The position numbers and the translations under genes are program-made. A stretch of 56,631 nucleotides of DNA, the filler included, from Jimgerdemannia flammicorona (taxonomy: Eukaryota): NCBI GenBank assembly GCA_003990765.1. It is 3 parts of 3 records of this genome, joined end to end, with 100 filler letters (N's around TTAATTAATTAA, not from the genome) between each part and the next. Parts side by side here need not be neighbours in the genome. Positions count along the whole stretch, not along the records: positions 18,914 to 37,724 come from RBNJ01002108.1; 2 more parts are not named here. The stretch is one strand, 5' to 3'. Of the stretch, positions 9,101 through 50,512 are shown piece after piece (position 1 is the stretch's first letter; every line of letters starts with the position of its first letter). The notes under the pieces are model-generated. The model saw nothing but the letters and a program-made list of their open reading frames with translations. It made no database searches and was not told where the DNA came from.

Positions 9101-11549
9101 CTTCAGGCAACAAAATCGGCACTAATGGAGCACGCGCACTGGCCGAGTCACTGAAGAAAAACGCGACTCTGACGGTGCTTATACTTGAATGTATATTCGA
9201 TTTATATGAAAAATTATTTGCAGTTGTTCATGGGTTGCTTTCACAACTTATTTATTCCTGAATATCTACTCTCTGTTCATCTTCAGCCAATGACATCAGT
9301 ATAGAGGGAGCACGCGCACTGGCGGAATCTCTGAAGCAAAATACGACCTTGTCTACGTTGAATCTCAATCGTATGTTAGAACAGTGTGAAATGTTTTTTA
9401 TATAGCTATAATGAGATCTAGCTGATATTGGATGTTTGGTTCATCTATATCTTACTCATCTTCAGACAACAAAATCGGCGATATCGGAGTGGGTTCTTTG
9501 GCCAAGTCACTGAAGTGGTGTACAACCTTGACTAAGCTAAGTCTCAATTGTATGTTAGAACTGTAGAAATTATTTTTTACAGCTGTGTGATATGTTTCAG
9601 TTTAAGATATAAGCATGTTTGCTTACTATCCTTTATTCATCTTTAGGTACCAACGTCAGTGATGTGGGAGCACGTGCACTGGTTGAATCTCTGATACAGA
9701 ACTTTACACTGAAAGAGCTTAATATTTTTGGTATATTAAAATGCAAGACCCATTTTTTGCAAGTATCTAGATCGCGACCCTGTATATTCTCTAATCATTT
9801 CCTTGTTCAATTTTAGGGAACAATATCAGTCGAACGTATGTAAGCTTCCTAGCAGTGGCTCGGCAAAGGAACTTGACCTATCAAGGTATGTTTGAACTAT
9901 GTATCTTCTAAAATTTTCAACCGTGTGGCGGAAAACAGCTTACAATATTTGTGTATTTCCCAGTCCCAAGCCTTTTGCCTCGCACTCTATCTGGCATATC
10001 CTCAAAGTCCGCACAAACCTTTGATCGGATTCAATATATGCTAAAAAAGTTAGATATGAGCATTATGTCAACGCCTAAACTCAAGTTTCCTAATGACGAG
10101 AGCAAGCTCTTGGAGTGTCTGGACAAGCTACAATTGGTTGAACTTGCAGCTTTCATGGTTTGGATACCTTACAACCAATTTACCCTGATGGAAAAGTTGG
10201 GCGAAGGGGGATTTGCCACTGTACACAAAGCTGTAGTAAACAGTGGTCCGAACTACGGAAAATCGGTTGCGTTGAAAATTTTAAAAGATAGCATCATAGT
10301 AATAGATCAACTGCGTAATGAGGTAGGTAATTATCCGGCCAGAGTTGCAAAGTTAAATATTTACAATTAATTTATATTGCAATCGCTTGATTTGTTGAAA
10401 ATAGCTATTAGTCAACATTTATCTCCAGCTTTGCAACAAAAGCCGTAGAGTAGCAATGCCTGCAATCATAGGATTATCAATGGAGAATTCAACCAGCCAT
10501 TATATTATTATAATGGAATATGCAGCTGGTGGTAACCTTACCCAACTTCTTGAGAATTCCCCACCGAATTCCTGGTTGAAAGTGTTGCGGATTGCGACAG
10601 AGATCACTCGCAGATTGCAACTGATTCATGAAGCAGGATTGATACACAATGATTTGCACCCAGGAAACATTGTGTTTCTCGGTACAGACGAGGCTAATCC
10701 CATTATCATTGATGTTGGCATAAGCAATACTCCGGAACATTTGGGTCAACGTGGTGGTTACATCTATGGACGGATTGAGTATCTCCCACCGGAAGCGTTC
10801 GTATTCAAGGAGGCTATTAGAACTTGCACGCAAAAATCTGACATATACTGCCTTGGAACACTTTTGTGGCAACTTACTGCAAGGCACTGCCCTCGTAGAA
10901 ATGCAATGCATCCTCCCGATGCCGCCCCCGTTGGATTGCGCGAAAAACCCATCCCTGGCACGCCACCCGAATATTCAGATATCTACAAGAGATGCTGGAA
11001 CCATAACCCCGAGATGCGACCGGCCATCGACAATGTGTTGGATAATCTTTATAGTATAGAGTTAAACCTTGCCAATGCAGATTGGCTGGACAACATCCCT
11101 GAGGCCTTGGCCCATTTCGAAAAAATCAAAGCCGAGATGGGCTCTGGAGTGTCCGAGTTCATGTTCGTTGAAGGATCCAGCAGTCGGTATCACACAACGT
11201 CTCAATTGGAAATTAGGCAAGTTTCGTACCCATTTGACATATACAAATATTCAATTTATGTTATTGTGTATGGCCGTTTTTGTTTTCCTGCTAAATCTAA
11301 AATTCTTATATTGGCAGCGGCATAATACTGTCAAGGGTACCAAAAAGCATTCAGCCCTACAGCGCTTCGCACAACAGCACTCCGCACAACAGCACGCTAC
11401 ACAACAGCACGCCGCGCAACAGTGTTCCGCCTAATAACTCTCCGCCCAAAAGTGCTCCACCCAAAAGTACTCTACACAACAGACCTCCCTCCAGCGGCGT
11501 TATACACAATAAAATCCCAACTGGAGATCGAGAGAGATGGAAATTGTGA
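6167..11549 (+). CDS. Multi-exon protein: N-terminal STE20-like pseudokinase, S/P/T linker, 10 RI-like LRRs, C-terminal TKL-type kinase (~1168 aa)
   Basis: Frame-consistent exons: 6167-6601, 6735-6834, 6924-7126, 7222-7353, 7492-7816, 8044-8127, 8222-8305, 8393-8476, 8574-8657, 8756-8839, 8933-9016, 9107-9190, 9287-9370, 9466-9549, 9647-9730, 9817-9885, 9964-10322, 10405(or 10429)-11216, 11318-11549. Kinase 1: HPNI, HRDIKSEN, GGFG, FWAPE, DIWALG. Kinase 2: GEGGFA, VALK, HNDLHPGN, DVG, YLPPE, SDIYCLG. An alternative last donor (GT at 11221) would end the CDS at 11434. Confidence 0.85.
8044..9730 (+). repeat. Tandem exon-intron array: ten 84-nt LRR exons, ~178-bp period
   Basis: Each exon encodes 28 aa (xNxIxxxGAxxLAESLKxNxTLTxLxLx). 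All introns are phase 1 and share gtatgttagaa-like starts and ttcatcttcag-like ends. Confidence 0.92.
11363..11481 (+). repeat. Degenerate 15-bp tandem repeat in last exon
   Basis: cactccgcacaacag / cacgctacacaacag / cacgccgcgcaacag / tgttccgcctaataa / ctctccgcccaaaag / tgctccacccaaaag / tactctacacaacag. Confidence 0.8.
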
Positions 11550-12165: not shown

Positions 12166-15100
12166 TGTGATAGTTGATCTAAATCAGGAATATAAATTAG
12201 AGAAATAGATATTTAATTACAGTACTTGAATCTGATTCCAAAATATAATATAGCCTTATAAATAGCAGTCATATTTTATAAACATTAAAGTTTTTACAAA
12301 TGATAAACTCTTCACAAATATTGAGATTTCACAGATGTTAAAGTTTTGACAATTGTCAAAAATTTAATAGATATCAAGAATTAATATTTATAAAAAGTAA
12401 CTTACAGGAAATATAGTCATAACTTAGTTACCTTATTTAGTAAACTTATATAAATATCTCCAGTATTTAGAATAAATAAAACCTCAGATTGAAATAGTTC
12501 TAAGTAAAGAAAAAGTAAGAGAACTAGTAAGCCTGCAGGCAGATATATAGAACTTACTCACTCTTGTATCCTAAGAACTCTGTAGAGTCAAAGAAGATCA
12601 AGTTTTTAAGATATAGAATTCTGATATACTTATACAGTTATACATCTACTATATTATAACCTGGTATCCATTGACTGGTAATTTAAGATGAATTTCTCAC
12701 TTTCAAGCTAGATAATGAATAACCACACAAATCAAACCAAAATATCTAGATAATATAGATATGAGATCACTAGTATCTATAGATATATCTTAGATAAATC
12801 AATCACTATATTCATTGATGACTTTGAGCAGTATGGACCCTAACAGCAAGATAGCAAGTAGCCCTCATTTCCTTCAGTCTCTAAGAACCAGCAAGAGCAG
12901 AATTTACAACTATAATCTATATAGAAATATTAATAATACCATACTAGCAATATAGAAGACCTGGCTCTGAACTATCTATTATATAGATAAGATCAAGCAA
13001 GCTCTAAAGAATCAGCTCAATATAATATATTAAGAAATGAGTAAGGATTCAAACATATTATATACAAGAATCTAATATTAGATAATCCTTATAGATTATA
13101 CTGCTGCTATTCTAAACTAAGTAGTAGAAGTAATCTTTATAAAAGAAGTCTATCCAGAGATAGTTCTGGTTATCTGCTTATTATCAGTAGTTCTGGATCT
13201 AGCACAAAAGATCACCTATACAAAATAATACTGGATAGCCAGACATCTATAAGACTATATAATAGAAAGAGTCACTGGAGTCAGAATTGAAATACTTAAG
13301 GCAACCAGTGTGATTTCTACCAAAGTGATCAATTGAAACACACCTCAGCCAAAAGCCATATATATATAGAATAATAGAGAAACAGTGACCCTATAGAGTA
13401 ACTTACTAAGAAGTTTGTCAAAATAACTATCCATCTTAGAGATATTGTAAAGAAAATTAGAAAAAGAGATAGCTACCCAGTTCAGAAGTTTGCTACCACC
13501 CCAAACAAGAAAAGAGATACCTGTTATACTTGTAGAGAAGAAGGCCACTACTCACATAAATATATGAGTAAGACCAAGTACAAAGCTTAGTCAAGTAATG
13601 CTATAAGAAATAATGAACAGGCCAATACTATTACCTTTGAAGAAATTAGAGAATCAGATGAAAAAGAATAGAAAGTCTACCCCACTAAGACTATCAAAAA
13701 GAATGTTTACAAGTAACTCTATAAGAGATCTCCAGAGAGACTCAAGATGAGCACTGTGGAAAAATAGATGGAAACTATTACAGAAAGCTAAGATGAAGAA
13801 ATAGAATCAAGATATAGAGCTGAAACAGGCTATTTAAGATATCATTTGAGAAACTACTCCAGCTAGTGAAGGAGAAAAGAAGAAAAAGCTCCACAAGATC
13901 AAGACTTTCAAGTATGATATCTTCAAGAACCTCAGTCAATATAAGGTCAATATAATGTTTGGCCAGTTAGCAGAAATACAAATATTTAGATAGCAAATAA
14001 GATATAGACTTGCTGAGATAACTAAGAAACAAGAATAGAAAATAACTGAGGCCAATAATATTCAAGAAGACTCTGGAGAGAAGAGCAAAAATAATTACAA
14101 GACATCTGCCTCTATACAATGTATCAAATTTAAGATAGAATCTTTGAGGCTATTATTGATACTAGAGCAGGAGAATGCCTTCTCAGCAAGAAAGCAAGAC
14201 TGCCTAGGTTGAGAGGTTGAAGAAGTAACCAAATTAGTATTCATTATAGCAGATAGTATAAGAGACATATCTCTAGGAAAGATCCAAGATATTTCCATCA
14301 AGTTTGGAGGAGCAACCATCTCAGTAGTTATAATTATAACTAATACTACTAACTATAACATTCTTATCAGCAATCAGTGGCTTTATAAAGCTAGAGCAAT
14401 AATTGACCTCAATGCCCAGAAGATGTAGATCATCTACCAAGGTCAGGAGATATGAATTCCCATCAATATCAACAAAGGAGTACTGCCTGAAATAGAGAAA
14501 GAAAGCAAGTAAGAAACCTATATAGTAACTACACAGAAAAAGAAGAAGAAAGGATAGATTAGTGAAGAAGAATAGTATAAAAAGATCATTAAAGAGTATG
14601 TATCACAAGGAGTCTGCCCTCATGGAATCAAGATATACTATATGAAATACATTGATAATTGCTACCAATATATCAGCAGAATTAAGAAAATCTACTAAGA
14701 AAGAAGACAAAAGACTCTTGAAAAATAGGCAAGACAAGAAAAGAAAGAGGAAGAGAATGATAAATCAGTAGCCCTCCTAGAGGACAGTAATAATGAAGAA
14801 GAAATCAAGGTCAAGATTTGGAAAATCCACTCTAATATAGTTCTATCAGAATATAAGTCAGAGAATATAGCTGAAATAGATATTACCACAGTAGAGAAAA
14901 CTGTACTAGAGTCCTAGACAACTACCCTGCTTGTAATGGGTCTGAAAATGACCATTCTAAAGGACCATATTAGGGTCCTCAAAACAAGAAGTAGTCTGGT
15001 TAAGAGTGAGATTACTATTGAAGGAGGAGTCATCAATTTAGACTATATTAGAGAAATACTACTCATTACTAGGAACTACAATCCTATGATTCTGTTTTCA

Positions 15101-15227
15101 ATCAAGAAGAAGGACTAATTGGTTCAAATGTTAACTTCTTAGTTCTTCAGCCAAAGATCATAGAAGTCAAGAAGTTGGAGGAGAAGAAAAGGATTCTGAT
15201 CTACTGAAAGAGAAGTATTTGCTAGCA

Positions 15228-15262: not shown

Positions 15263-18200
15263 GTCCCTTGGACTGCCCTTTATTACTGCCGTCTATAATT
15301 CTAACAATACAATGTCACCCCAAACCCTCAACCAATGCCCCATGGACCCAACTCTCCCCTCTTGACCTCCCCCTGCCCAAGTACAACCCAACCCCCCACT
15401 ACCTGAATCCTCCCACCACTCTTTCAAGAGATACACTATACCAAACTCCTGTGATTCTCCCCACCTGGCCCCCACCCTTGCCACCAGCTATTCAAAATGT
15501 CCAATAATAACCATTCCCAATGCACCACCTTGTCCCCAACCCCAACCCACCATCTCTCCTCAAATACATGAACCCAATACCCAGCCAACCCAACCCACAT
15601 AGCCAGAGCCCAACCAAGGATCAGCCATTTGTCCCCAACCCCACCCATCAGTCTCTGGTGGAGCTCTCTCCATCTCCCCCCTTCCCCTCCCTCCAAGGCA
15701 CACAACTCTAACCGATTCATAATATATCTCCAAAACTCCTCCAAAACCTCGCACTCACTAAGCCAATGTTCAGGTATTTGTACCACTCCTCCCTCCTGAC
15801 CAACATTGAAACATTCCTTACACTCAAATACTCTACCATCCACTAAGTGCCCAGACCAATAGTTCAACATCACATTCTGCTGTAGGACTTGCCACCACAC
15901 CACCCAGAACTTGGGGGGCAGCCACTGCCTTACTTGTTTGCTCCAAAGCCAGAGTCCATTCCAATCCCACTCCTCACCAATTCCAACCCTCTGCCAGGCT
16001 TCAGGCCACAGGTCTCCACCCAAGCCCTGCAGACACTCCATACTCTCGCCAAGCTGAAAATCCTCCACTGGAACACCACTCAGTAGAAGCCTGTCCTACC
16101 ACCACATCTGTGGTCCCCAATCCTCCTCGGCTTCATCACCTTGCCACCAAAGTCCAATTTTCTTAGCACCATCTACCACCCCTAACCAAAAGCCTGTAAA
16201 CCGCATCCTTCTGCTCCCATCCATGTTCACCATCACAAGCAGGTCACCAGAGTCACCATGAGGGGAATACTGAACCTCCCACAACCTCTGCATGAGTAGC
16301 ACCCACTCCCAGCCCCTTAGCTCACTTGCTCTCCTCAACCACCAAGCTCTCAAGCAGTGAAGCTGCTTAGTGAAATCAACTAAACCTAGCCCACCTCTTT
16401 TCATGGGCAGTATGAGCACCTCCCAACCCACCTGGCTTTGCCACCCTCCCCAGATCCATGACCTCACCATCTTCAACAGCCCCCTGACCACCCAAGTTGG
16501 GAAATCCAAATGATACCCCACATACCACAGCTTCAGCATCCAATACACATTCAGCACCATCACCCTTCCAGCTAGAGATATATGCTGACCTCCCCATCAC
16601 AGCAGAACATTTCCCCACTCCAGAAGTTGCTGGTTCCACCATGCATGGGGAAGAAGAGATCCAAACACCAAGAAGTAGATCCCCAAATACCACACTGGAT
16701 CACCAGCCAGCACCACCATCCCAATTACATCACCACCAATAATTCCAGCACCCAGCACCAGAGTCTCACATTTGTGCCAGTTTAGTTTAGCACCAGAACT
16801 CCTCTCATACCATTTCACAGACCTCTGTAACTCTCCCACATCCATCAAGGAGCCCAGCCCGACCACCATATCATCAGCAAAGGCCCCCACCTTCCAATTA
16901 ATCCCTAAAATGTCCAAACCCCCAATCCAATGCTGAATTCTGTCCAGTAGGGGCTCCAAGGAGAGGGCATACAATATGGGTGACAAGGGGTCCCCTTGCA
17001 GCACCCCCCACCTCAGGGGAAAGGTCACTCCCCTGTGGCCATTGATGACCAATGCCACCTAACTGTCCTCCAAGAGACTGATCAATGACCCTCAAAACCC
17101 TGGGGGGAGATCAATCCATTTCAGTACTCCCTCTAGCCAGATCCTCCGCACTCTATCATAAGCCTTCTCTTGATCCAGAAATACCAACTGGCCATCCACC
17201 CCTATAGCCCAGGCACCTTCAATCACTCCATATACCCAAGCTGTCCCATTGCAAATCAACTGGTCACTGACAAACTCATGCTGCTCTACACCAAGCACCT
17301 GCTGAGTGATTTCTTGCAGCCTCATTACTAAGATCTTCATCACCAGTTTGCAGTCCATGTCTAGTAGCATGATCAGCTGCCAGGTCTTCCAATCTTCCTG
17401 CCTTCTCTTATTCTTGTAGAGCAAGGAAACTAGTCCTAGGCACTGGCCCCCAATCCAAGTACCAGACTGAAGAACCTCATCACACATAGCAGTCATTTCC
17501 TCTAGCACCTTGCCCACCCCAGCCATCTTCTTCCAAAAATCCCAGATGAGCCCATCCTCCCCCGAAGCTGTCCTCTTACTAGTTGAGGCCACAATCTTGC
17601 AAATTTCCTCTCCACTCACTGGGTCCCCCAAAGCCCCTAGACCAATCACAGGGTTTGGGTGCCAATCCCCCAGCTGCCTTTCAATGTCTAAAGCATCTAC
17701 TCCTTCTTCCTCCTCACTCTATAGATTCCCCCAATAGGTTCTCAGTATACCCAGAATTGCCAGAGTCCCCATCACTAGCTCGCCATTTGTATCCAGAACT
17801 CCTTCTCACTGCTGCTTTATTTGTTGTGCTTGTAACAACTGCATTAAAAACTTAGTAGGCCTCTCCCCCTCCTCAAGCTCCTGCCACTACAGTCAGCCCA
17901 CTATCTCCTGCAGCCTCACCTCCTCCCTTCTTAAAACTCCTTTAAGCTCCTCCACCTCCTTTTGGATTTGCACAATATGTCAATCAGTCACCTTCCTATC
18001 TTCTAGCACACCTGCCCATCTCTCCATGAGTACCACCAGATGCTGTGAGGCCCACATCATCCACTGTTGTCACTGGGCACACCTTCCTTTCCCTGCTTCC
18101 CTCCAATACCCCTGAGCATTTGCCTTCAGTCTCCTCTAGCAGTCCCCAATCCCCAGGCCCTGTTCCCACCACCTTCTGATATTTCTGACAACATCCATTT

Positions 18201-18813
18201 CCCAACCCTCCCACAGAGCTCTATCCTCCAACAATGAAGAATTTAACTGCCAATGTCCAGGCCCATCCTCACTTCCCCCAAACCTCCCTCCTCCAAGCAG
18301 CCCCCAGTGATCAGACTATGGACACCAAACTACCTCCAGCACTATCCAGACATCTGCTCCCCAATACTCTGCTGTCAAAACCCAGTCAATTCTAGAACCC
18401 AGCCCTGCTGCCCAATAGGTGTACACCTGCCGATTGTCCCAAAACTGTCTTCCCAAGTCCACTAAAGAACTCAACCTCTCTGTCTCCAACCAGTCACCCA
18501 ACCCATCACTCTCACTCTGCATGTCTCTCTCTCTATCTGTTCTATCTATCTCCTTATCCCGTACTATGTTGAAATCACCCCCCATGCAGTCCAACCCAAC
18601 CTCTCTCAAGACACTGGCCTCTTTCAACCTATGAATCCAATCCACCCTCTCCCCTCTCTCAGCTGGGCAGTAACAAGACCCAACTGTCAATGAGCCCCAT
18701 CTAGATCTCTTCCACACTCCCCACACCACCCAAGACCCCCAATGTCCAATGTCCCCAATGTCCCTCATCCCTTTCTGAATGAGAATACCCACTTTCTCCC
18801 TCCATACCACCCC
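15230..18813 (-). mobile_element. Non-LTR retrotransposon (L1/Tx1-like ORF2: APE endonuclease, RT, C-terminal CCHC), degenerate; 5' end lost in gap
   Basis: GGDFN and SRIDW (endonuclease); LDQEKAYDRV, GVLQGDPLSP and FADD (RT); CKEC..EHWLSEC. AATAAA then a poly(A) tail seen as a T-run at 15230-15259. Stops and frameshifts present. Confidence 0.92.
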
Positions 18814-18913
18814 NNNNNNNNNNNNNNNNNNNNNNNNNNNNNNNNNNNNNNNNNNNNTTAATTAATTAANNNNNNNNNNNNNNNNNNNNNNNNNNNNNNN
18901 NNNNNNNNNNNNN
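18814..18913. other. Assembly gap with artificial TTAATTAATTAA spacer
   Basis: 44 N + TTAATTAATTAA + 44 N = 100 nt. Confidence 0.97.
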
Positions 18914-19405: not shown

Positions 19406-19578
19406 TTTATTTACTAATAGAGATAGTGGAGGCAGTGGAGGATGGGGTAGCAGTATTGATAATAGAGCTCAATCCATTAATATAGGTAGTAGAGGAGACA
19501 GTAGAGGAGATGGTAGAAGAGATAGTAGATTGGTATAGGAGAGAGGTAGTATATTATTATAATAGAATATATATATAT

Positions 19579-20054
19579 TGTAACGTAGTGGATGCTTACT
19601 CTTGAAAGTATGTCAGATTTCTGTATCTTGAAAACTTGACTGTTCTGACTCTCGCAGAGTCTCTTGAAGTTGCAGGGGAGGGTGGGTGAGTTCGAAGTGT
19701 ATCTGCTCACAGGCTTACTAGTTCCTTTGCTATCTCTTTGCTTTGAACTATTTCGATCTGAGGTTTATTCACTCAAAGATACTGGGTTATTTATACAAGT
19801 TTGCTAGCTATGAGAGGGTGGCTAAGTAATAAATGAGTCATTTGGACTTTGTCGAAACATTTGGACAATGTCTAAATACTATACTAAATTGGGACATTCA
19901 ATTTGGATAATGTCTAAAATTTAGACAATGTCTAAGAATTTTGACAATATCGAAATCAGCGACTGCTAACTATAAGGCTATACTACTTTGGGAATGGGTG
20001 CGATCAAGTGTCTATTCCCTATTTCCTTCTTCCAAATTTAGCTGTACCATCACA
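19579..20054 (-). repeat. 3' LTR of family A element
   Basis: Direct repeat of 25835-26310 with ~22 mismatches by manual count. Confidence 0.95.
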
Positions 20055-20133
20055 ACTTCCTCCTGAATAGATGGTCTCGTCCCTGAGGCATCTATTCAAA
20101 CTCCCAGGCTTCAACTGTCTATATGGTCTTGTA

Positions 20134-20553
20134 CTATGCAATTTGCTGCATGACTGTTTCCCAATGATGTCTTCTCACTTTCTCGAAGTCAGTAGGGGTT
20201 ACTTCTCTCAGATGGTCTATTGCTGGTTCATCTTCTCGGAATAACTTGTGGATCCTTTTGGCGATAGTGATCTGTGAGTAGGAGAGTTGACACTCAGCAA
20301 TCCAGTCCTCCTTGGTCTTTGCTGGATCCTGATTGAGCACCTGTCCAAGCTTGAAGTACTCTTGGAATTCTGCATGATACTGATAGGCTCTAAAGTGCGA
20401 GATCCGAGAGAGATGGGTCTGTACAATACTCTGAATATCCTCATAGTATGGCTCTATGGTTGGAGGCTCAGTGGTGTGCCATTGTCTATCAATGGCTCTT
20501 TGGGCAGTACTAGTGATCTTGAGTGCCATTGCAGTACTTTTGTTACTGGCCAT
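20134..20553 (-). CDS. Uninterrupted 139-aa accessory ORF between integrase and PPT; function unknown
   Basis: ATG overlaps the pol end (pol TAA at 20543-20545). No TM or signal segment. Ungapped similarity to the family B LTR ORF. Confidence 0.75.
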   Translation of the reverse strand: MASNKSTAMALKITSTAQRAIDRQWHTTEPPTIEPYYEDIQSIVQTHLSRISHFRAYQYHAEFQEYFKLGQVLNQDPAKTKEDWIAECQLSYSQITIAKRIHKLFREDEPAIDHLREVTPTDFEKVRRHHWETVMQQIA

Positions 20554-23500
20554 GATATTTCTTGAGTCGGTTTCGGTGAATGGTGGTGGGGATTATTGTG
20601 CCTGAGGGTTTCCATAGCCAAAAGGTGGTCCCTTTTATATCTTGCACAAGGTAAGGTCCTTCCCACTTGGGCTCCAGTTTTCATGACCATGAAGCTTCTA
20701 CCATGTTCGGATATACTAGGACTTTGTCTCCTATCTTGATAATCTCCAAGGGCTTGTGGGTCTTTTCCGCATTCCTCCGTTATAGTATCTGTGCCTTGGT
20801 TATGTAATCCTCAGCCTTCTTCCTGATTTGGTGTAGTCTCCGTATTTCTATATCCACATGTTTCCATACAGCATCTCTATTGGATGATAGGGTTTCTTGA
20901 GAACATTCTTCTCCAAACAGCATTTCTTGAGGGGTAAAGTGGGTACTTTGTGATCGGATATCCCAGAGAGCAGATAATGCTATTGGCAGATAGTGATCCC
21001 AGTTCTCATAGTTATCACAGATCTTGGTGATAACATTCTTGAGGGTTTTGTTGGTCCTTTCTACTTGTCCGTTTCCTTGAGGGTGATAGGCTGTGGTCCG
21101 AATGTGCTGGATCTTGTATTTCTTGGAGAGAACTTCGAAGAACTGGTTCATGAATTCTGTTCCTCTATCTGTAGTTACTTATGTTAGGGTCTTGAACCGA
21201 CAGATGATTTCCTTATGGAAGAAATCGGCGATTGACTATGCATTGGCTTCCTTGAGGGGTCCTGCTTCTATCCACTTCATAAAAAGGTCTACAATGACAA
21301 TGATATATTGGTTACCAGTCAGGGTCAAGGGTAGAGGGCTGATTACATCCATTGCTATATGGGCAAATGGTACTGGTTCTATGTGTGCTGATCCTGGAGC
21401 TTGATTCCGTTAGTCTTGTTTCTGTTTCTGGTATTTGTTGTATGTTTTGATGAATTGTCTGATATCTTCCTCTATCCCTGGCCACTATATTATTCTTCTT
21501 GCCTTATTGTATGTATTCGTTCCTCCTAGATGGCCAAGTTCATGTACTGATTTCATCGCTTGCTCCTTCTTGTGTTCTGGTATGACTAGTAGTTTTCCTT
21601 TCTTCAGTGTTTCTCCATTGGTTTTGAATTGTTTCCATGTCCTGTTGATAATTGTTTGTGTCCATTCTTCCAGATGTTGGGGCATCTTTCGCTGTCCTAG
21701 GTATGTGATAATTCCATAGTAGAGCTCCTTATTCATGATTGATCTGTTGGTTGGAGGTAGTTCAAGGTGTCCATGAGAGAGTATCTGCATTGGAATTTGT
21801 TCTTCTAGGGCGGTATACAATGGTTATATCATAGGCTTGTAACTTCATTATCCATTTGGCATAGATTCCTTTGGGTTGTCCAGTTGTCAGTAGCCAGGTG
21901 AGAGCTGAGTGGTCCATCTGGATGGTGAAGTGTCTTCCAGCCAAGTAGTAGTGGAACTTTTCTATGGCCCAGATGACTGTGAGGCATTCCAACTTGTAGG
22001 ACTCGTATTCTTTTTCAGCTCCTCGGGTTCTGCAGCTAAGATATGCAATAACATACTCCTTTTTGTCTTCTTTTTGAGCTAGGACTGCTCCTAGTCCCTG
22101 TGCACTTGCATCCATCTGAAGGATAAATTCTTGGGTCCAATTGGGTCGTCTGAGGATAGGTGCCTGGGTCAGTCTGACCTTGAGTTCATCAAATGCTTTC
22201 TGTTGTCTGCTAGTCCACTGGAACTTGGTATCCTTCTTATTGAGTTCGTAGATTGGACCTGCGATGTTGGAGAATCCTCTAATGAATCTGCAATAGTAGG
22301 AGGCAAGTCCCATGAAGGCTTGGGCTTCTGTAACAGTGGTGGGTCTTGGGTATGCTGCCACTGCTTGTATCTTGAGGGGGTCTGTGTGTGTTCCGTCTCG
22401 ATTGATAATATGGCCAAGATAGGAGATCTCGATTTCTGCAAACTTGCACTTCTTGGGTTTGATATAGAGGCCATGTTGTCTTAGTCTCTCCATTATCTAC
22501 TGTATGTGCTGCAGATGTTCCTCAGGTGTCTTGCAGTAGGTGATTACGTTGTCAACATAGACCATCATCCATCTTCCCATGTCATAGTGGAAGATTTTGT
22601 TCATTATATGCTGGAAGCTTGCTGGTGCATTGCACATTCCGAATGGCATTTGTAGGTAGATGTAGGTTCCGTCTGGGGTGATGAAGGCTGACTTTTCACT
22701 TGCCATTTCTGTGAGTCTGATTTGGTAAAATTCTGAATATAAGTCCAAGGTGCTATAGTACTGTGCTTCATCTCCCAGTATTATAAAGATGTCACTGATG
22801 AGTGGCAGTGGTTGGCAATCCTTCTTGATAACTGCATTGAGCTTTCTGTAGTCGACACAGAGCCTTGGGGCAAATTCTCCAGGTTTGCTTCCTTTTTTCG
22901 GAGCTAGTACAACTGGTGAAGACCAGGAGCTACTGGCTTCTTTGATGATGCCAGCTTCTTCTATCTGCTTGATTTCTTCTCTGAGCCATTCTCGGTAGGC
23001 TGGTGGGACAGGTCTTGCTTTCTGGTAAATTGGTTCAGTGTCTCCAGTATCTATCTCGTGATAGTAGTATGGGGTCTTTCCCTTGATATCCTTGAAATCT
23101 GTGGCAAAGACATCCTCGAATTCGTGGAGTATTTTCTTGAGTTCCTCCTTGAGTGGGAATTCATCTCCAATTGTGTAACTGTGCTTGCTCATGTTTTCCT
23201 CCTTCTTATGCTCGAGTTCAGTGATCTTGGTGCTGGCGAATACTCCTCTTCCTGTGGATCTGAATCCTTTCTTTCCTCTTTTCATTTCCTCCAGATTCTT
23301 GACTTCTATGATCCTTGGCTGTATGATCGGGAAGATCAACATCTGTGCCAATCGGTCCTTCTTCTTGACTGGGAATGGAATTGTAGGATTGTGGTTCCTA
23401 GCAATGAGTAGAATTTCTCCAGTATAGTCTGAATCGATGACTCCTCCTTCAATTGTGATTTTGCTTCTAGCCAGGCTGCTTCTTGTCTTGAGAATCCCGA

Positions 23501-25720
23501 CATGATCCTTTAGGATGGTCATCTCTAGTCTGGTTGTGAGTAGGGTGGTTGTCTGGGGTTCGAGTACAGTTTCTTCTACTGTAGCAATGTCCATTCCAGC
23601 TGTATTTTCTGACTTGTATTCTGGTAAGACTGCATCAGGGTGGATCTTTTGAATCTTGACCTTGATTTCTTCTTTGTCATCACTGTCCTTCAGGAGAGCT
23701 GGTGGTTCATCATCTTCCTCCTTCTCTTCTTCCCTGATCTGTTCTTCGAGAGCTTTCTGCCTTCTTTCTGGTGGATCTTCCTGATTCCGATGGTGCACTG
23801 GTAGCAATCGTTGACATGCTCCATACAGTACATCTTGATTCCATGAGGGCAGACTCCTTGTGGTGCATAGCCTTCTGCCATCTTCTTGCACCATTCTTCT
23901 TCACTCATCCATCCAACTTTCTTCTTCTTTGGAGTAGTCACCATATAAGCTTCCTCTTGCTTGCTCTCTTCTTCCTCCATATTGGGCAGGACTCCTTTGT
24001 TGACATTGATGGGAATTTGTATCTTCTGTCCCCGGTAGGTGATTTGCATCTTCTGGGCATTGAGATCGATTACTGCCTTGGCTTTGTGAAGCCATTGATT
24101 GCCGATGAGGATGTCATAGTTGGTGGTATTGGTTATGATTACATCTACTGGGATTGTTGCTCCTCCAATCTTGATGGAAACATCTCGGATCTTTTTCAGA
24201 GGTGTGGCTCTTGTGCCATTGGCTGTGACGAATACTAGCTTAGTTGCTTCTTCCACATCCCAACCTAGGCGGTCTGCTGCTTTCTTGCTGAGGAGACATC
24301 CTCCTGCTCCTGTATCAATGATGGCTTCAAAGATTCTATCTTTGATTTAGCATGTTGCATAAGCAGAGGTTTTGTGATTGTCCTCACTTTCTTCTCCTGA
24401 GTCCTCTTGAACATTGTTGGCCTCAGTTATCTTCCAGCCTTGCTCCTTGGTGGTTTCTGCAAGTCCAAATCTCATTTGCTGTCTGAAAGTAGGTATTTCT
24501 GTGAGCTGACCAAAGATTGCATAGACCTTTTGTTGACTGAGATCCTTGAAGATATCATACTTGAAGGTCTTGGTCTTGCGAAGCTTCTTTTCTTTTTCTC
24601 CTTCACTGGCTGGAGTGGTTCCTCAGATGATATCTTGAACTGCTTGCTCAAGCTCTATGTCTTGATCCATTTCTTCGGCTTGGCTTTCTGTGGCTATTTC
24701 CATCTGTCTTTCCACTGGGTTCTTCTTGGGTCTTTCTGGTGGTCACTTGTAAGGTTCTTTGTGAACATCCTTCTTGGTGGTCTGAGCAGGATAGGCCTCC
24801 CATTCCTCTTCATCGGAATCTCCAATTTCCTCAAAGGTAATTGTATTGGCCTGCTCCTTGTTTCGTGTAGCATTGCTTGGTTGAGCCTTGTGCTTGGTTT
24901 CGCTCATGCATTCGTAGGAGTAGTGGCCTTCTTCTCCACAGCTGTAGCAGGTACCTTTCTTCTTGTCTGAGGTGGCAGCAAACTTCTGAACAGGGTGGCG
25001 ATCTCTTCCTCAGATTTCCTTTACCACATCTCCCAGATGGGCAGTCATTTCAGCAAACCTTTTGGCGAGTTCCTCCATAGGGTCACTGTTCTTTTGCTGC
25101 TCTGTAGCTTTTGGCTGAGGTGTGTTTTGATTGATCATTGTGATAGGGATCACACTGGTTGCCTTGGGTGCCTCAATTCTGACTCCTGTAACTCTCTCCA
25201 TTGTATGGTCTTGTGGGTGTCTGGCTATCCACAATCGCTGAGCATAGGTGACCTTCTGTGGCAGATCCAGAATCACTGGTGATGAGCAGATGGCTATGGC
25301 TATTTCTGGATGGACTCCTTTCATGAAGGTTGCTTCGGCTACTTGATCTTGGATAGCAGCAGCATAATCTGCAAGGATTATCTGATATCAAATTCTGGTA
25401 TAGAATGTGTTTGGATCCTCACTCATTCCTTGGTACATTGTGTTGAGCTGATCCTTCAGGGCTTGCTTGATCTCATCTGTATAATATGTGTTTCGGAGCC
25501 AGGTCTTCTGTACCATCAGTATGGCATCGGCATCATTTCCTGCATGGGTTGCACCTGTGAATGCTGCTCTGGCAGAACCTCGTAGGCTGAAGGGCATGAG
25601 GGCTACTTGCTGTACTGCTGTCAGGGTCCTTACAGTGGCATACTGCTCAAAATCATCAATGAAGGTGATGATTGATTCATCTGAGGTATATCCATGAAAT
25701 ACTGGTGGTCTCATATCCAT
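20543..25720 (-). pseudogene. gag-pol of family A (gag, CCHC knuckle, aspartic protease, Cys/His module, dUTPase, RT, RNase H, integrase with GPY/F)
   Basis: MDMRPPVFHG start; CYSCGEEGHYSYEC; IIDTGAGG; MPFGMCNAPASFQ; YVDN (mutated YxDD); QMDASAQGLGAVL; TAYHPQGNGQVERTN; KWEGPY. Contains premature stops and frameshifts. Confidence 0.93.
23250..23665 (-). other. dut: dUTPase domain between protease and RT (family A)
   Basis: All five trimeric dUTPase motifs: AGMD, RSSLA, GVIDSDYTGEI, DRLAQ, RGKKGFRSTG. Confidence 0.95.
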
Positions 25721-25834
25721 CTTGTCTAGGTATTGGGGCTCAGTTTGTATGGTTGTTCGGGTAGTGTCAGTTGTTTGTTGTTCAGCTTGAAAGTGAGGGA
25801 TTCGTCTTGAATCACCAGCTAATGGGCACCAAGT

Positions 25835-26310
25835 TGTAATGTAGCAGATGCTTACTCTTGAAAGTATGTCAGATTTCTGTATCTTGAAAACTTGACTGTT
25901 CTGACTCATGCAGAGTCTCTTGAAGTTGCAGGGGAGGGTGGGTGAGTTTGAAGTGTATCTGCCCACAGGCTTACTAGTTCCTTTGCTATCTCTTTGCTTT
26001 GAACTATTTCAATCTGAGGTTTATTCACTCGAAGATACTGGATTATTTATACAAGTTTGCTAGCTATGAGAGGGTGGCTAAGTAATAAATGAGTCATTTG
26101 GACTTTGTCGAAACATTTGGACAATGTCTAAATGCTATACTAAATCAGGACATTCCATTTGGATAATGTCTAAAATTTAGACAATGTCTAAGAATTTAGA
26201 CAATGTCGAAATCGGCGACTGCTAACTATAAGGCTATACTACTTTGGGAATAGGTGCAATCAAATGTCTATTCCCTATTTCCTTCTTCCAAATTTAGCTA
26301 TACTATCACA
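25835..26310 (-). repeat. 5' LTR of family A element
   Basis: TG..CA ends, 476 bp, followed on the minus strand by ACT + TGGTGCCCATTAGCTGG. Confidence 0.95.
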
Positions 26311-28779
26311 ATATATATAATATCTGCTCTATATTAAGATATATCACAATAAAATTAATATTATATATATTATATCTAGAACAGTACTATAATATATTTA
26401 TAGACTCTAGAATTATTCTAGATATATACCAGATACTATACTAAATAGTTCAGATATGTATTATATAAATTACCAGATTATTGTATAGAGTTACTAGATA
26501 TTATAGGATATAAATTGATATCTGAGTATTATTTTATATCTAGATATACTCAGATTAGTCAGATATCTCTTAATATTTTTATAATGCTATTGGGATAATA
26601 ACTACTGATATAAATACTAACTCACATTTATATCTAACTACTTCCACTATAATAAAGAAATAGGAGATACAACCTATACCTCCAGATAACCCTCAAGATA
26701 GAACTAATGACCTCATTTCTTAAGTATAAGTAATATAAAGAATAACTACCAGCTTACTATAATCCTGCAATATATAGTTCCATAATCTACTGAAGATATA
26801 CTGATAGCAAATTTGAATAATATACCCCTTCTCTGCTCTCCAATCTATACTCAGCATATGAGACAGATGATATATACCATTCTGTAGGATGATCACTTCA
26901 TTCTAACATATGTACTACTATATATATAAATAAATAGAGAGATATAATCCAAGAACCACTCTTTCTAGACAACTACTTTATCAGAGATAATATCATTAAT
27001 AGTGACCTTATTAAATAATATTCAGACAGTATTGAAATCTATAAATAGCTTAGCAGTCATTAGTATAGTTATTAGTTTAGTATAATATAACTATATTCTA
27101 ACTTATCAGTCAGTAGATCTCTTGATATATTAGTTCACACTTTGTATAACATAATTATATTCTGATATAATAAGTACTAAAGTACTATATCCATATTTAG
27201 TCTAGTCTAGATATATAACCTCTCATTAGTATAAATACCCCCTCTCTCAGATCTTAGAAACTCAGACAGAAATTGGGATAAGAATCAGATAAATACTTTT
27301 TCATATAAATATTCCTTTATACACTACTCTTAGTATTAGCTAATAGCAATATTATAAATAGTCACAAGTGTTTTGACAGCAATTGATATAGAGCTGAAGA
27401 AATGATTGAATTTCAATTACTGGATCTTTGATACTATATATAGAATATTGTTGTAAGTAGCCCCCAGAATAAATCTATTTAATAATCTACAAATCACTCT
27501 TAAGTAAACCTATATTATATTAGATTCTGCTCCTAACTAGATCTAGAAATTTTCTAATTTAGTATTATCTATAACAATATACCAATTCAACTAAGCTGGT
27601 TTTAGTTTTTTCTTTCTGAAATAAAGAAAATCCTGAACATCCAGAACAAGTCTGATAAAGAACTTTGATTAAAATATCAATTCAATCATAAAATCAATAA
27701 GTATAGAGAATATACTCTATATATATAAAATTGATCTTAATCTTAAGAAATTAATCTTCTAGAATATCTAAAACTTTCTGAAAACCCCTTCCAGAACTAT
27801 ATAATGGTACCTTTATAAAGTATTCTCTTACAACTTTGTAGTAGTGGTCTACAATCTAATTTTACTTTAAGATGTTTCCTCACTTAGCTATAATTCTCAA
27901 CAGAAATTCCTATAAGTTGATATAAAGCCCAATTACTGAACTGGAATTTATCCCAAACTATCTCAATCTGAAGTAAATTGAATTTAATATATAAGAACAA
28001 TTAGACCTCTATATCTGTAATAAGTAGGACAAACTTCATATATACAAAGAAGTACTCCAATTAAATAAACAGATAGATAAAACCCTATTTATCAAACTTC
28101 TTACTCTATATACTACAAGTTAAGATGAAAAAGGTCTTATATGTAGAAGTCTTCTTTATCCTTCTCAATAAGAGTTTTATAAGCTCTACAAATCTAAACA
28201 ACCTAGGACAACCAGCAGCTATATTTCTAGCCCTAGTTTCTCACAAAGCCCAAGCCTCTATAGTCAAGTAGCTCAACTATACTGACTACTACCATACCAG
28301 AACTAAGACTGCTCTATACTACTATTTTCAGAATTGCAAGACTCACTATATTCATAAAGAAGAAGATAGAGAAACTCTTTATAACAATCAGACTCTGAGT
28401 CAGAAGTAGGCCTAGTTAGAACTTTATCTGAATCTGAAACCAAACCAGAAATAAATCCCAATCTCAAAAGAGCTTTTGATTTAAGCCCATCTGAACTCTG
28501 GTATATAATTGATATCATTTACTTTGATACTAACAAATCCAGCTCTATCAAGACTAAAGTGAAGAAGAGGAGAAGTATCTTAATGAATTTGATCTCAGAT
28601 ATACTACCAAAGGAGATATCTATCTCAGGATAAAATATATCCACAGAATAACAAATATTTATTTATTAGGCCCTTATATAGTTACTCTAGTAACTTATAT
28701 AAACTCAAGAAATACCATCATACTTCACACTAATATCTCAAATTATATCAGTAACTCCATTATCAGTAGTTCAACTATC

Positions 28780-31700
28780 TCCTATAAACAATATAGCAAA
28801 TTAACAAATTTAAGACCTTATAGCCCAGATAGGTATAATAGTAGCAACTATTACTATCTTAGCCAAACAGACTCAGCCAACTAAAAGTGAGAGTCTATCT
28901 ATTTTTAATAGTACTATACAAGAAGTCCAAAGCTTTATTAGTATAGTAAATATTAATTTCAAAGCCAATCAATAGACTAATGAGCAAGTTGCAAACTATA
29001 TCTTAATGAACAACTATTGAACAACCTTTTGTCACTACTATGGCTAATGTTTATATTGTGGAATGTGGACTTTGGAGAGAGAAGCAAACTGTTTATTGCT
29101 AATTCTTATGCACTTTTACACGTCACAATTAGTGACATTTACATGATGATGTAGTCAAGGAAGACTGTGCCACCATATATCAAGTTGTAACCTACATATT
29201 TCAATACTTCTGCTCAACAAGATATGCAAATTTCCAAACTGCAATACTAAGCTATAACCACTGCAAATCTTGCTGCAATATTCAGACCGCTATCTAGAAA
29301 CCAAAAAACATCTGAATTGCCTGCTTAAAGCTTGAAAAATAGGTTGAAAAGTAGAGATGTGAACATTCATAGATAAGCAATGTTGGTAGAAATCTGCAAT
29401 ATAGTGATAGGGAAAAGAAATGCATTGAATATGAAATAGATTTCGAAATTGATCTGCCAAAATACTTCTGTATAGCTCACTATTGTTGTTGTTTTTTATT
29501 GCTGGCATATAGTTTTTGCTGCCATAACTCCCATTCCCTTTATGCATAGATCAAATCTTGTCTTTGGGAGGGCTTTCATTAATGAATCTGCTATCATACT
29601 CTCCATTGGAGTGTATTCCAGGTGTATAGTGTTGTTTTCCATGTATTCCCATATGAAATAATGCTGTATATCGATGTGTTGCATTCTAGCGTGGTGTATA
29701 GGATTCTTTGCCAAAGCAATCATTAATTGGTTATCTTGCTGGAGTAGTGTAGAGTGCTGTTGCTTGTATCCCAGCTCCTTTAACAGTTCTCGAAGCCAGA
29801 TAGCCTCCTTTGTTGCCATTGACAATGCTTGATATTCTGCTTGTATAGAGGATGTTGCTACTGAAGGTTGCTTACATGTTTGCCATGAAATGGCTCCATT
29901 GTTTACTTTAAAGATGTATCCAGTTATAGACCTTCTGTCATCTAAGTCGCTGGTCCAATTGGCATCACAAGAACCGAATAGGCATATAGTACTCCTGCTT
30001 TGCCCATTATCACCACCCAAACTGAGTGTATAGTCCATGGTTCCTTTGATGTATCTGAAAATTCACTTAATTGCCATCCAATGGCTATTGTTATAGCATG
30101 AAGAATACTGCGCCACTTTGTTTACCACAAAAGAGATATCAGGTCTCATCCCTTGCATAAGATACATGAGGGATCCCATGGCTTATCAATAGGGGATATC
30201 ATTTCCCTCAGACATAGTGTCAGACTTCTTTAGTTTCATGAATGTTTCTATAGGTGTCCTGACTGGTTTGTATTCACTCATCCCAAATTGCTTGAGAATA
30301 TTTCAAATATATGTAGCTTGCGTTAGGTGTATAGTGCACTCATGCCTATTATGTGTAATTGATATTCCAAGGAGATAGGATGCTTCGCCTAAGTCCGTCA
30401 TTTTGAATTCCTGGCATAGTATAGCCTTTACATCGTTGATTTCACTTGCCATTCCAACTAAAATAATATTGTCAACCCAAATTCCCAGATATACCATTCC
30501 TGAGGATGTATGTCAGGTATATATGTATGGATCGGCTTCACAATGCTTGAATCCAGTGTCTAGGAGATATCCATCGAACTTTCGATTCCACAATCTTGCC
30601 GCTTGCTTGATTCTGTAGAGCCCTTTGCATAATTTACATATGAGCTCATTTCTGTCATTGTTGTATAGTTCGTATCCTTGTGGTTGTCATACGTATAACT
30701 CCATATCTACGTCACCGTTCAAGAATGCTGTCTTTACGTCCATTTGGTATATTTCATAGTCATACTTGGCTCTGATTGCAAGAAGTATTCTAAGCGAAGT
30801 CAACTTAAATACTGGAGAAAATGTCTCATCATAGTCTATGCTGTGGCCTTACGAGTACTCCTTTGCTACAAATTGAGCCTTATACCGTTCTATGTTGCCA
30901 TTAGCCTTATGCTTGATCTTGTAGACCCACTTTGATCCTATAGCTTGTCGCTCTGCTGGAAGGCTTACTAGATCCCAAGTGTTGTTTTCGATGAGTGAAC
31001 TGTACTCCTTGTCTATAGCCCTTCTCCACTCCTTATCATTTGAGTGAATGGCTTCATCGTAGTTCTCTGGTTCGCCGGTTGTTGCAATATATGCACATTC
31101 ATAAGAATTGGTGTAGTTCACATGATGTTCACTATTGTTGCTATGACGGGATGTCTTAGGCAGGTCCCAATAACCTCCTAAATCCATATCTAGAACTCTG
31201 AATTTGTACTTTTGTTTGCCCTTCAGAGAGGTATCCTCTTCGTCATCCTCATCCATAATTTCTATTATCCTTAGTTCTTGCAACTTCATTGCCGTTTGAA
31301 TGGGTTGTGCTTTCACTGGCTGTACCATCAAATTCACTGTCAGATTCACCATCAGATTCAAGATAGGAATTTCCACATAAATTTCCTGCTTAGTCTCCTT
31401 GAACTGTACATCACATGAAATGATCATATGTCATTTCTGTAGGTTCCAAAGTCTGTATCTCGCTCCATTGTATTCAAGGAATATGTATATGCTTATCTGC
31501 CTTAGGTTCGAACTTGCCTCGGTTGCCACCTTTGTGCCTTGCTTCCAAATATGCGTAAGTGTGAAATGTCAGGCTTGGATCCATTCTATAATTCCTCAGG
31601 GGTAAGATTGCTGTCGTTCCTGGATTGCTTGCCAGGATCCTTGCTTAGAGCTCGAGAGAAACAATGATTTCAAATATATGCTGCCATATTCACCACTTCC

Positions 31701-37724: not shown

Positions 37725-37824
37725 NNNNNNNNNNNNNNNNNNNNNNNNNNNNNNNNNNNNNNNNNNNNTTAATTAATTAANNNNNNNNNNNNNNNNNNNN
37801 NNNNNNNNNNNNNNNNNNNNNNNN
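37725..37824. other. Assembly gap with artificial TTAATTAATTAA spacer
   Basis: 44 N + TTAATTAATTAA + 44 N. Confidence 0.97.
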
Positions 37825-44443: not shown

Positions 44444-44543
<100 letters not shown>

Positions 44544-50190: not shown

Positions 50191-50194
50191 AATC

Positions 50195-50498: not shown

Positions 50499-50512
50499 AT
50501 CCTGCTTACTAG

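Follow-up and report, generated by a model that had tools for sequence, protein, structure and literature searches.

Is a short open reading frame (ORF) that lies between pol and the 3' long terminal repeat (LTR) of a retrotransposon a gene of that element, and what could such a gene do? The question is raised by a stretch of 56,631 nucleotides (nt) from Jimgerdemannia flammicorona (GenBank assembly GCA_003990765.1), here called the window, which is repeat-rich, has a base composition of 38.7% G+C, and contains a Ty3/Gypsy element (family A) with a 139-codon ORF, ORF-A, in this position. A clade of dUTPase-encoding Ty3/Gypsy retrotransposons carries a genuine third gene, of which ORF-A is a dead copy. 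As far as the sequences indicate, the dUTPase-Gypsy elements probably carry it as a separately expressed gene. To our knowledge, additional ORFs of LTR retrotransposons are widely reported and almost none has a known function, and regulatory complexity is normally credited only to complex retroviruses. The ORF family offers a concrete, testable case of such complexity in a retrotransposon.

ORF-A and its host element

The family A element comprises the following features.

20134-20553, minus strand: ORF-A, the accessory gene copy of Gypsy family A, 139 codons with an ATG start and a TAG stop
20543-20545, minus strand: pol stop codon TAA of family A, 8 nt downstream of the ORF-A ATG, in ATGGCCAGTAA
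20092-20133, minus strand: remnant of the 153-codon form (its last 13 codons and terminal stop), cut off by the TAG at codon 140
20056-20064, minus strand: polypurine tract AGGAGGAAG, immediately before the 3' LTR, starting 27 nt past the end of the 153-codon form
19579-20054, minus strand: 3' LTR (TGTGATGG...GTTACA), with TATAAA at LTR position 261 and AATAAA at 287
20554-26008, minus strand: decayed region of gag, protease, dUTPase, reverse transcriptase (RT), RNase H and integrase, the dUTPase lying between protease and RT
25835-26310, minus strand: 5' LTR, followed by ACT and the primer-binding site TGGTGCCCATTAGCTGG (25815-25831)

A first-pass annotation of this DNA had reported a 139-amino acid (aa) ORF whose ATG overlaps the end of pol, and the overlap is seen. 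The ATG lies within ATGGCCAGTAA (20543-20553), where the pol frame reads ..TAT CAT GGC CAG TAA, and the two genes share 11 nt. The ORF-A frame is also open for 13 codons upstream of its own ATG. ORF-A occupies the space between pol and the 3' LTR as a sense ORF, with the pol stop at 20543 on one side and the polypurine tract (20056-20064) and the LTR (from 20054) on the other. The annotation was also right that ORF-A is not env-like: its maximum Kyte-Doolittle mean over 19 residues is 0.07, and it has no membrane segment. Judged by the same 19-residue maximum, neither ORF-A (0.07) nor its long database relative P0009 (0.74) shows the signal peptide or transmembrane segment of env-like ORFs. 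The LTR pair of the element is 95.4% identical over 478 nt in the self-BLASTN of the window, and its pol ends without a chromodomain.

The window copy of ORF-A is a pseudogene that has lost its last 14 codons. Seven sequences reach the C-terminus of the A form; four of these run to 153 aa (P0001, P0006, P0026, P0027), and three end at position 139 or its equivalent (the window copy, P0005, P0022). The window copy has TAG at codons 140 and 145, where the 153-aa forms have Q. The tail TIQTVEAWEF of the A form aligns with TITLNSDEVEEFW of family B. When gag-pol (20554-26008) is threaded through three frames, it contains 12 in-frame stops and at least 2 frameshifts in ~5.45 kb, a density of about one defect per 390 nt. 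The ORF-A region has two defects in 462 nt, and it is decaying no more slowly than gag-pol. The earlier proposal that an ORF still open beside a broken gag-pol is a sign of selection fails on this point, since neutral decay predicts the same for a short ORF. Because the decay of ORF-A matches that of gag-pol, its openness says nothing on selection.

Homology of the family A and family B ORFs

A second Gypsy family, B, is present in two copies of opposite orientation, B1 and B2, and a third, more distant lineage, D, in one. Their features are as follows.

34307-35798, plus strand: predicted LTR of copy B1, 1492 nt, with the whole of ORF-B in its U3 region, followed by ACT, the primer-binding site (35802-35818) and gag
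34548-35357, plus strand: ORF-B1, 269 codons interrupted by two in-frame stops (TAG at 34791, TAA at 34824), a homologue of ORF-A with an additional acidic C-terminal half
35562-35594, plus strand: the B1 LTR's own TATAAATA (35562) and AATAAA (35589), spaced as in the family A LTR
41424-42999, minus strand: predicted LTR of copy B2, holding a more decayed ORF-B
41923-42738, minus strand: ORF-B2, more decayed than ORF-B1
44602-45425, minus strand: ORF-D, a decayed homologue (profile matches at E 1e-18 and 8e-9), downstream of the pol of the third dUTPase-Gypsy element
44579-44601, minus strand: polypurine tract GAGAGAAAGAA and LTR start TGTAATAG, directly after the ORF-D stop
46095-49544, minus strand: family D pol remnants, with dUTPase (E 4.8e-22), RT, RNase H, the integrase SH3 domain and a weak chromodomain

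The likeness of ORF-A to ORF-B had been noticed as a pair of short aligned blocks, and both were located, at 20164-20262 (minus) and 34863-34961 (plus). BLASTP aligns the two ORFs with 27.7 bits (E 5e-5) at 26% identity over 77 aa with 2 gaps. Their Smith-Waterman score is 76 against a shuffle mean of 32 (standard deviation 5.3), and none of 2000 shuffles in either direction reached 76, so the pairwise similarity is significant, as the annotation had asked to see. The unbroken relatives P0001 and P0009 score 77, again with 0 of 2000 shuffles as high. A profile-profile comparison by hhalign gives a probability of 85% and E 5.9e-6 over 104 columns. On these scores, the A and B ORFs are homologous, and the likeness spans most of ORF-A, well beyond the 34-aa block, with two insertions in B. 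The gapless alignment first described holds for the 34-aa block, but the longer alignment needs gaps. Likewise, the consensus proposed with it matches both blocks, but its final 'HH' is not conserved: the four unbroken family B relatives covering the position have 'RR' or 'RC' there. Self-BLASTN of the window detects no DNA similarity between ORF-A and ORF-B.

Copies of the gene and their positions

A profile search of the six-frame translation of the window found four copies of the gene, A, B1, B2 and D, and each of the four Gypsy 3' regions or LTRs that the window shows carries one. The ORF family is a genuine accessory gene present in most copies, not a single transduced copy. A fifth copy, lineage C, comes from one metagenome locus (L001, 1535 nt) and is an unbroken 291-codon ORF (L001:376-1248), whose stop stands directly before GGAGGGAGGAT, followed by TGTAATAAG; this contig is too short to include the pol or dUTPase of lineage C. 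In lineages A, C and D, the sense ORF stands directly before the polypurine tract and the 3' LTR, and in C and D the tract is followed by TGTAATA. The earlier description of an ORF in the env position of two Gypsy families was too narrow in one respect and too broad in another: the ORF is common to three lineages of the window (A, B1/B2 and D) and to lineage C, but the family B ORF lies inside the LTR. The suggested association with dUTPase-Gypsy elements is borne out by dUTPase detected in elements A, B2 and D.

The family B arrangement is read from two copies that show the same order of ORF, ~440 nt, primer-binding site and gag. The likeness between B1 and B2 starts exactly at T(A/G)TAAT(G/A)GTGACC beside (TA)n flanks, a sequence similar to that with which the LTRs of A, C and D begin, and the likeness extends to a primer-binding site homologous to that of family A. 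The TATAAA/AATAAA pair is 26-27 nt apart in both A and B LTRs, and in B it falls within the last ~240 nt. A family B LTR of ~1.5 kb, with the entire gene in U3 and upstream of gag, is very likely. Since ORF-B stands between the LTR start and the LTR TATA at 35562, it would be a U3 gene, in family B only.

The alternative that B1 and B2 are tandem elements with a short common LTR beginning downstream of the ORF is less likely, as no polypurine tract precedes such a start, and it is also disfavoured by the exact TGTAAT-type terminus next to (TA)n and the A-like TATA/AATAAA geometry. The 240 nt of the B LTR before ORF-B were considered as a relic of a pol end and rejected: all nine comparisons (the upstream stretches of B1, B2 and C, each in three frames) had at least 48 of 500 shuffles reaching the observed score. 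After the ORF-B stop (35358-35380) stands TGTTACACTGG, again without a polypurine tract before it; it may be the relic of an older LTR start, predating the growth of U3 to include the gene. At the N filler 37725-37824, B1 (plus) breaks off in protease and B2 (minus) in RT, facing each other, and the two copies are 79-89% identical; the arrangement could be a genuine inverted pair or the product of a join in assembly or masking. The N runs at 37725-37824 and 18814-18913 contain two pairs of 44 nt.

The gene family in databases

The annotation had called the protein unrecognised, and it is so in every source consulted. ORF-A has seven close relatives at 65-80% identity and is 57-80% identical to 12 database fragments of its type (A-type), and ORF-B has five close relatives, including the unbroken 271-aa form P0009. 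A profile built from A and B finds 12 proteins at E<=0.001 among 1,835,955,588 representatives, the distant members being 154-342 aa long, and so the ORFs belong to a real gene family. A wider profile finds 20 proteins in a collection of 5.8 billion, all of them unnamed or 'hypothetical' and all on short environmental contigs. The B-type proteins number seven (P0008-P0013, P0025). Unbroken database forms are either short (139-153 aa, type A) or long (271-291 aa, types B and C). The conserved core reads [EY]Y.[IL]G..L, then ~25 residues, then A[KR][KR][IV][HY].[ILV]F...P.A[IL].[HN][LI].

Neither ORF-A nor ORF-B has a Pfam match at E<=0.01, and among 15 members only two single-member matches appear at E<=1. 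HTH_Tnp_Mu_2 is matched by one of the 15 at E 0.031, and the ParB family by none of them at E<=1. The profile search that had been proposed as a check aligned the A and B profiles (E 5.9e-6) and matched no well-characterised domain. No source offers any name beyond 'hypothetical protein' for the family members, and a literature search, with figures and supplements outside its reach, found no description of the protein family. The element family is also present in soil metagenome DNA: nine sequencing runs hold small shares of it, and contigs from four runs show it in many diverged copies, with 2 of the 40 listed differences falling within the ORF, a number too small for substitution analysis, and with no informative joint.

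Selection and divergence

Copies B1 and B2, both decayed, are the sole DNA pair for selection analysis. Their ratio of non-synonymous to synonymous substitution rates (dN/dS) is 0.35 in frame versus 0.64 and 1.15 in the other two frames, and their differences by codon position (47, 25, 58) leave the second positions most conserved. In a neutral simulation with the same substitution spectrum, dN/dS was 0.53 +/- 0.11, and 23 of 1000 runs were as low as the observed value. The dN/dS check suggested earlier thus gave a value below the neutral simulation, but the signal is modest. The first-pass annotation had further reasoned that protein conservation with little evident DNA similarity implies purifying selection; its premise stands, as there is no BLASTN likeness between A and B, but the direct evidence of selection, a dN/dS of 0.35 against 0.53 +/- 0.11, is modest. 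The pol of D is 27-37% identical to that of A or B. The retention of the gene across lineages so far apart in pol, together with the unbroken long forms, makes a stronger argument for selection than dN/dS.

Between A and B, the ORF is 25% identical and the dUTPase-RT region 59%, and C and D share 49% identity in the ORF. The unequal divergence of ORF and pol suggests either that the ORF evolves fast or that the module has been exchanged between lineages. The differences from B1 to B2 (34307-35798 versus 41424-42999) show a strong transition bias, with C>T 72 and G>A 64 versus T>C 34 and A>G 26. The bias looks like a deamination-type repeat mutation similar to repeat-induced point mutation (RIP). 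Element D (44300-50500) is very AT-rich and stop-filled.

A candidate internal promoter

Each copy of the gene is preceded by a TATA motif at a similar distance, counted from the T of the motif to the ATG.

20632-20639, minus strand: TATAAAAG before ORF-A, 86 nt upstream of the ATG, within the last pol codons; candidate internal promoter
34462-34469, plus strand: TATAAAAG before ORF-B1, 86 nt upstream of the ATG
42819-42826, minus strand: TATAAAAG before ORF-B2, 88 nt upstream of the ATG
45492-45499, minus strand: TATAAATA before ORF-D, 74 nt upstream of the ATG
L001: TATA motif before the lineage C ORF, 80 nt upstream of the ATG

Exactly one TATAAA[AT][AGT] is present in the 250 nt upstream of the ATG in all five copies (A, B1, B2, C, D). 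Such a motif lies at -74 to -88 of only 14 of the 1889 ATGs in the window (0.74%), and four of the 14 belong to the gene copies described here; widening the interval to -60 to -110 gives a share of 2.4%. The sequence TATAAAAG occurs nine times in the window, counting both strands, and three of the nine precede ORF-A, ORF-B1 and ORF-B2. Apart from this motif, the sequences upstream of A and D resemble those of the other copies no better than shuffled sequence does. An internal promoter is suggested by the TATA box at -74 to -88 in five of five copies, and agreement within 15 nt among three to four independent lineages seems hard to ascribe to chance. The earlier label of complex retrotransposons gains from this a new argument.

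A motif of ~20 nt, AAAGACTTACCA(T/C)AAACAAA, stands just before the ATG in B (34527-34547) and C (L001:355-375), whose proteins are 43% identical. Its local alignment score is 20 versus 11.3 +/- 1.6 for shuffles, none of 300 of which reach it, and it could be a conserved leader. A branch point with an AG splice acceptor upstream of ORF-B was considered and dropped; it had been picked by eye only and is not conserved in C.

The predicted protein

The AlphaFold2 model built on 26 sequences consists entirely of helices (3-23, 40-75, 81-88, 92-105, 109-114, 120-124 and 128-138), with a mean predicted local distance difference test (pLDDT) of 86.4 and a predicted template modelling score (pTM) of 0.78; four of the five models reach at least 84.5. 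It supersedes a first model from 12 sequences (pLDDT 52.9), with which Foldseek returned nothing. The protein had been described as small and helical, and the prediction agrees with this confidently. The most conserved motif, A[KR][KR]I[HY]..F, falls in helix 92-105, the second of a helix-turn-helix-like pair, and we take it to resemble the helix-turn-helix region of ParB proteins.

When the model was compared with 48,161 chains by VIA-align, the DNA-binding domains of SopB (Z 3.9; root-mean-square deviation (rmsd) 3.4 Å, 69 aligned), VirB (Z 3.7; 3.4, 68), P1 ParB (Z 3.4; 3.5, 72) and KorB (Z 3.1; 3.5, 70) all aligned to model residues 61-139 and all stood within the top 16 rows, with every Z below 5 and 3.9 as the highest of the whole comparison. 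The ParB-type likeness of the modelled helices is weak and serves as a lead only. Two other searches gave nothing of use: VIA on the 453 chains from Foldseek had TRPV1 helices as its best match (Z 2.8), which was judged meaningless, and a search of the ESM Atlas with P0009 reached a best feature score of 0.83 with all TM-scores below 0.5, the chance level.

Predicted as two copies, the protein forms a symmetric antiparallel dimer via helix 40-76, with a score of 0.39 versus 0.01 for the best of three controls. Among proteins of solved structure, 21 of 30 homodimers and 0 of 23 single-chain proteins attain this mark (in eukaryotes, 17/29 and 0/30). Agreement between the runs covers at least 88% of contacts, and the partner pLDDT is at least 57. 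The model supports a dimer but does not show one. The charge of the long forms is unevenly distributed: in P0009, residues 1-140 have an isoelectric point (pI) of 9.6, and residues 141-271 a pI of 4.05 with 31 D+E. The acidic second half of the long forms ends in a conserved hydrophobic LNFLL.

Comparison with known systems

Foamy virus Tas (Bel1): Tas is encoded by a 3' accessory gene with an internal promoter in the preceding coding region, and its short mRNA is 3'-coterminal with the genome. Tas itself is an activator that binds DNA and has an acidic activation part. By analogy, the family A TATA box lies within the last pol codons, and the long forms have a basic-then-acidic layout. In contrast, predicted viral structures offer no counterpart to the present family at E<=0.001, and the short A form is without an acidic tail.

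Genes in U3: The sag gene of mouse mammary tumour virus (MMTV) and lentiviral nef are genes in the U3 of the LTR. Family B is similar in having a complete ORF in U3, which is for that reason copied into both LTRs. It differs in that there is no membrane protein and no superantigen, the element is a retrotransposon, and the gene is outside the LTR in A, C and D. The likenesses to Tas and MMTV sag are functional analogies, not membership.

ParB, SopB, KorB and VirB: ParB proteins serve in bacterial partition and have further domains. The predicted likeness consists of a helix, a helix-turn-helix with basic residues in its second helix, and two to three short helices (residues 61-139). The scores, however, are in the noise range, no sequence profile matches, and the further ParB domains are absent here.

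Third ORFs of Gypsy elements: A third ORF placed after pol and ahead of the 3' LTR is a known feature of Gypsy elements (PMC7264820). Such sense additional ORFs of Ty3/Gypsy elements, termed aORF-3S, include those of plant Athila and Bagy2, the ORF3s of rotifers and the 'add. ORF' of fungal chromoviruses. The present family shares with aORF-3S a sense third ORF between pol and the polypurine tract or 3' LTR across the copies of a family; it differs in having no membrane segment, enzymatic domain, name or Pfam model, in having its own TATA box, and in lying in the LTR in one lineage. Rotifer Gypsy lineages bear dUTPase and varied ORF3s, according to part of another report (PMC5408684). For fungal Gypsy elements, passages of a third (PMC2864245) mention dUTPase, and a figure legend on fungal chromoviruses an 'additional ORF with unknown function', which, compared by text passages only, could be the present family. 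CERV of the Caenorhabditis elegans Gypsy element Cer1 is described in part of a fourth (PMC10309623) as a non-env accessory protein downstream of pol that acts on RNA export. It is similar to the present protein as a non-env accessory protein 3' of pol in Ty3/Gypsy, with a demonstrated function in the life cycle of its element, and differs in acting on RNA export. In our judgement, three points are new: the family is unnamed and spans distant dUTPase-Gypsy lineages, its candidate internal promoter is conserved, and one lineage has the gene in U3.

Proposed role and alternative explanations

The gene would be transcribed from its own TATA promoter ~80 nt before the ATG, yielding a short mRNA terminated at the poly(A) signal of the LTR, which is somewhat probable. 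This mRNA would share its 3' end with the genomic RNA, and in lineage B every LTR would be a self-contained gene. In the models, the protein would be an antiparallel helical dimer whose core (~61-139) binds nucleic acid, most likely DNA, with the core motif A-[KR]-[KR]-[IV]-[HY]-x-[ILV]-F placed in the second helix of the helix-turn-helix-like pair; this step is tentative, with doubt the stronger side. That the protein regulates transcription at the element's own LTR, with the acidic, hydrophobic-ended tail of the long forms as the activating part, is rather doubtful. Taken as a package, a real third gene with its own promoter and a dimeric nucleic-acid-binding core falls just short of being as credible as not. 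A DNA-binding regulator is plausible from the models: the dimer, the ParB-type likeness and the acidic half are consistent with it, and none is decisive. The strongest version, a Tas-like circuit outside retroviruses, in which a separately promoted dimeric DNA-binding transactivator would switch on its own LTR and lineage B would hold the cassette of promoter, ORF and poly(A) signal in the LTR, is unlikely. If it were true, each lineage B LTR, solo LTRs included, would be an autonomous regulator gene acting in trans on the whole family. If the family B arrangement alone is true, solo LTRs keep coding capacity after the loss of the element. A gene in the LTR bears on the trans activation or silencing of transposable-element families and on gene annotation in repeat-rich fungal genomes.

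Several findings weigh against this explanation. The overlap of the ATG with the pol stop in family A suits termination-reinitiation equally well, and the TATA argument is post hoc and made in AT-rich DNA. The long-LTR reading of family B rests on two 5' LTRs, and no family B 3' end is visible in the window because B1 and B2 both stop at N runs (37725-37824). Support for purifying selection on ORF-B from its codon differences is modest. ORF-A is near neutral (pI 6.4) and is without the acidic tail. On the protein side, the best match among PDB sequence profiles has E 3.1, and no credible helix-turn-helix family appears in Pfam or PDB profiles. Foldseek with the 26-sequence model returns no hit at E<=0.001, either from the PDB or from predicted viral structures (BFVD), and the fold-match Z values are far below the level that the tool calls meaningful (Z 8) and perhaps reflect only a common helical arrangement. 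The dimer test is alignment-free, has small counts and is calibrated mostly on microbes.

Other functions would account for parts of the same evidence. The protein could bind the RNA of the element, for nuclear export, packaging or translation, like lentiviral Rev or CERV and with no DNA binding. A helical protein that is dimeric in models, a basic N-terminal part in the long forms (pI 9.6) and a position 3' of pol, as for the retroelement RNA-export factors treated in part of PMC10309623, suit this role. Its best, though weak, structural neighbours are instead double-stranded-DNA-binding domains, and nothing found points specifically to RNA, which leaves an RNA-handling factor quite unlikely. 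Chromodomains or integrase tethers steer integration in other Gypsy and Ty elements, and the ORF protein might do the same by binding target DNA or chromatin and guiding the pre-integration complex to (TA)n tracts. All visible insertion sites, seen for A on either side and for B1 and B2 on the 5' side, are in TA-dinucleotide runs, family A pol has no chromodomain, and there is the weak likeness to DNA-binding domains. However, these are three insertion sites only, target choice is usually a property of integrase, family D carries the ORF in spite of its weak chromodomain, and an acidic tail is unexpected in a tether; the probability of a targeting factor is lower again than that of an RNA factor. 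Less probable still is a factor that binds element DNA and counters host DNA methylation, RIP-like mutation or small RNAs in the manner of VANC, the anti-silencing protein of Arabidopsis VANDAL transposons. The strong C>T and G>A bias is typical of a deamination-type genome defence, and the fast divergence of the ORF relative to pol (25% versus 59%, A versus B) is expected in a conflict with the host, but it fits relaxed constraint too.

Two further alternatives concern the gene itself. Its product could be translated from genome-length RNA by termination-reinitiation or frameshift, with no separate transcript, in which case the TATA boxes would be a coincidence of AT-rich DNA. The family A geometry invites this reading, with the pol stop 8 nt downstream of the ATG and an ORF frame that is open 13 codons upstream, and part of a report on a fungal virus (PMC2699510) describes such a geometry for coupled translation. 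In D, by contrast, the pol stop (~46095) is ~670 nt upstream of the ATG (45425); the B gene is in the LTR, with no recognisable pol end in the 240 nt before its ATG; and the 375 nt before the lineage C ATG have none either. From the geometry of B, C and D, translational coupling cannot be the general rule. Lineages that are otherwise dissimilar upstream, moreover, keep the TATA position, and we consider coupled translation in place of a separate transcript improbable, to a degree between those given to the RNA and the targeting factor. The ORF could finally be a decaying passenger that has no function at present, either part of a host gene that was captured or what remains of a former pol or env. 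All four window copies are broken, the dN/dS signal is modest, and the most distant database members (P0016, P0018-P0021) are of unplaced genomic context. Such a passenger would hardly be retained in at least four lineages, with pol 27-37% identical between A or B and D, and its unbroken forms of 271-291 aa, the confident AlphaFold2 fold of the conserved core, the most conserved second codon positions and the lack of similarity to pol ends all speak for a gene. This is the least credible of the alternatives, at a very low probability, and the third gene with its own promoter is the reading we prefer.

Other elements in the window

The window also holds several LTR retrotransposons, a Copia element, a LINE-like (long interspersed nuclear element-like) element and a few kinase-like gene pieces.

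8207-9580: array of diverged ~180-nt repeats at 60-79% identity, between protein-kinase-like ORF pieces (6071-7189 and 9912-11322)
12438-15227, plus strand: second family-A-like Gypsy copy, 75% identical to A, with LTR, gag, protease and part of dUTPase, ending at ~15227 before its 3' end
15436-18861, minus strand: non-LTR (LINE-like) reverse-transcriptase element
29056-34058, minus strand: decayed Copia element with 154-nt LTRs that are 90% identical, ending 250 nt from the B1 LTR start

Runs of TA dinucleotides are found at all visible Gypsy insertion boundaries (19540-19578, 26311-26340, 34290-34306 and 43000-43020), which suggests that the Gypsy elements here prefer (TA)n targets.

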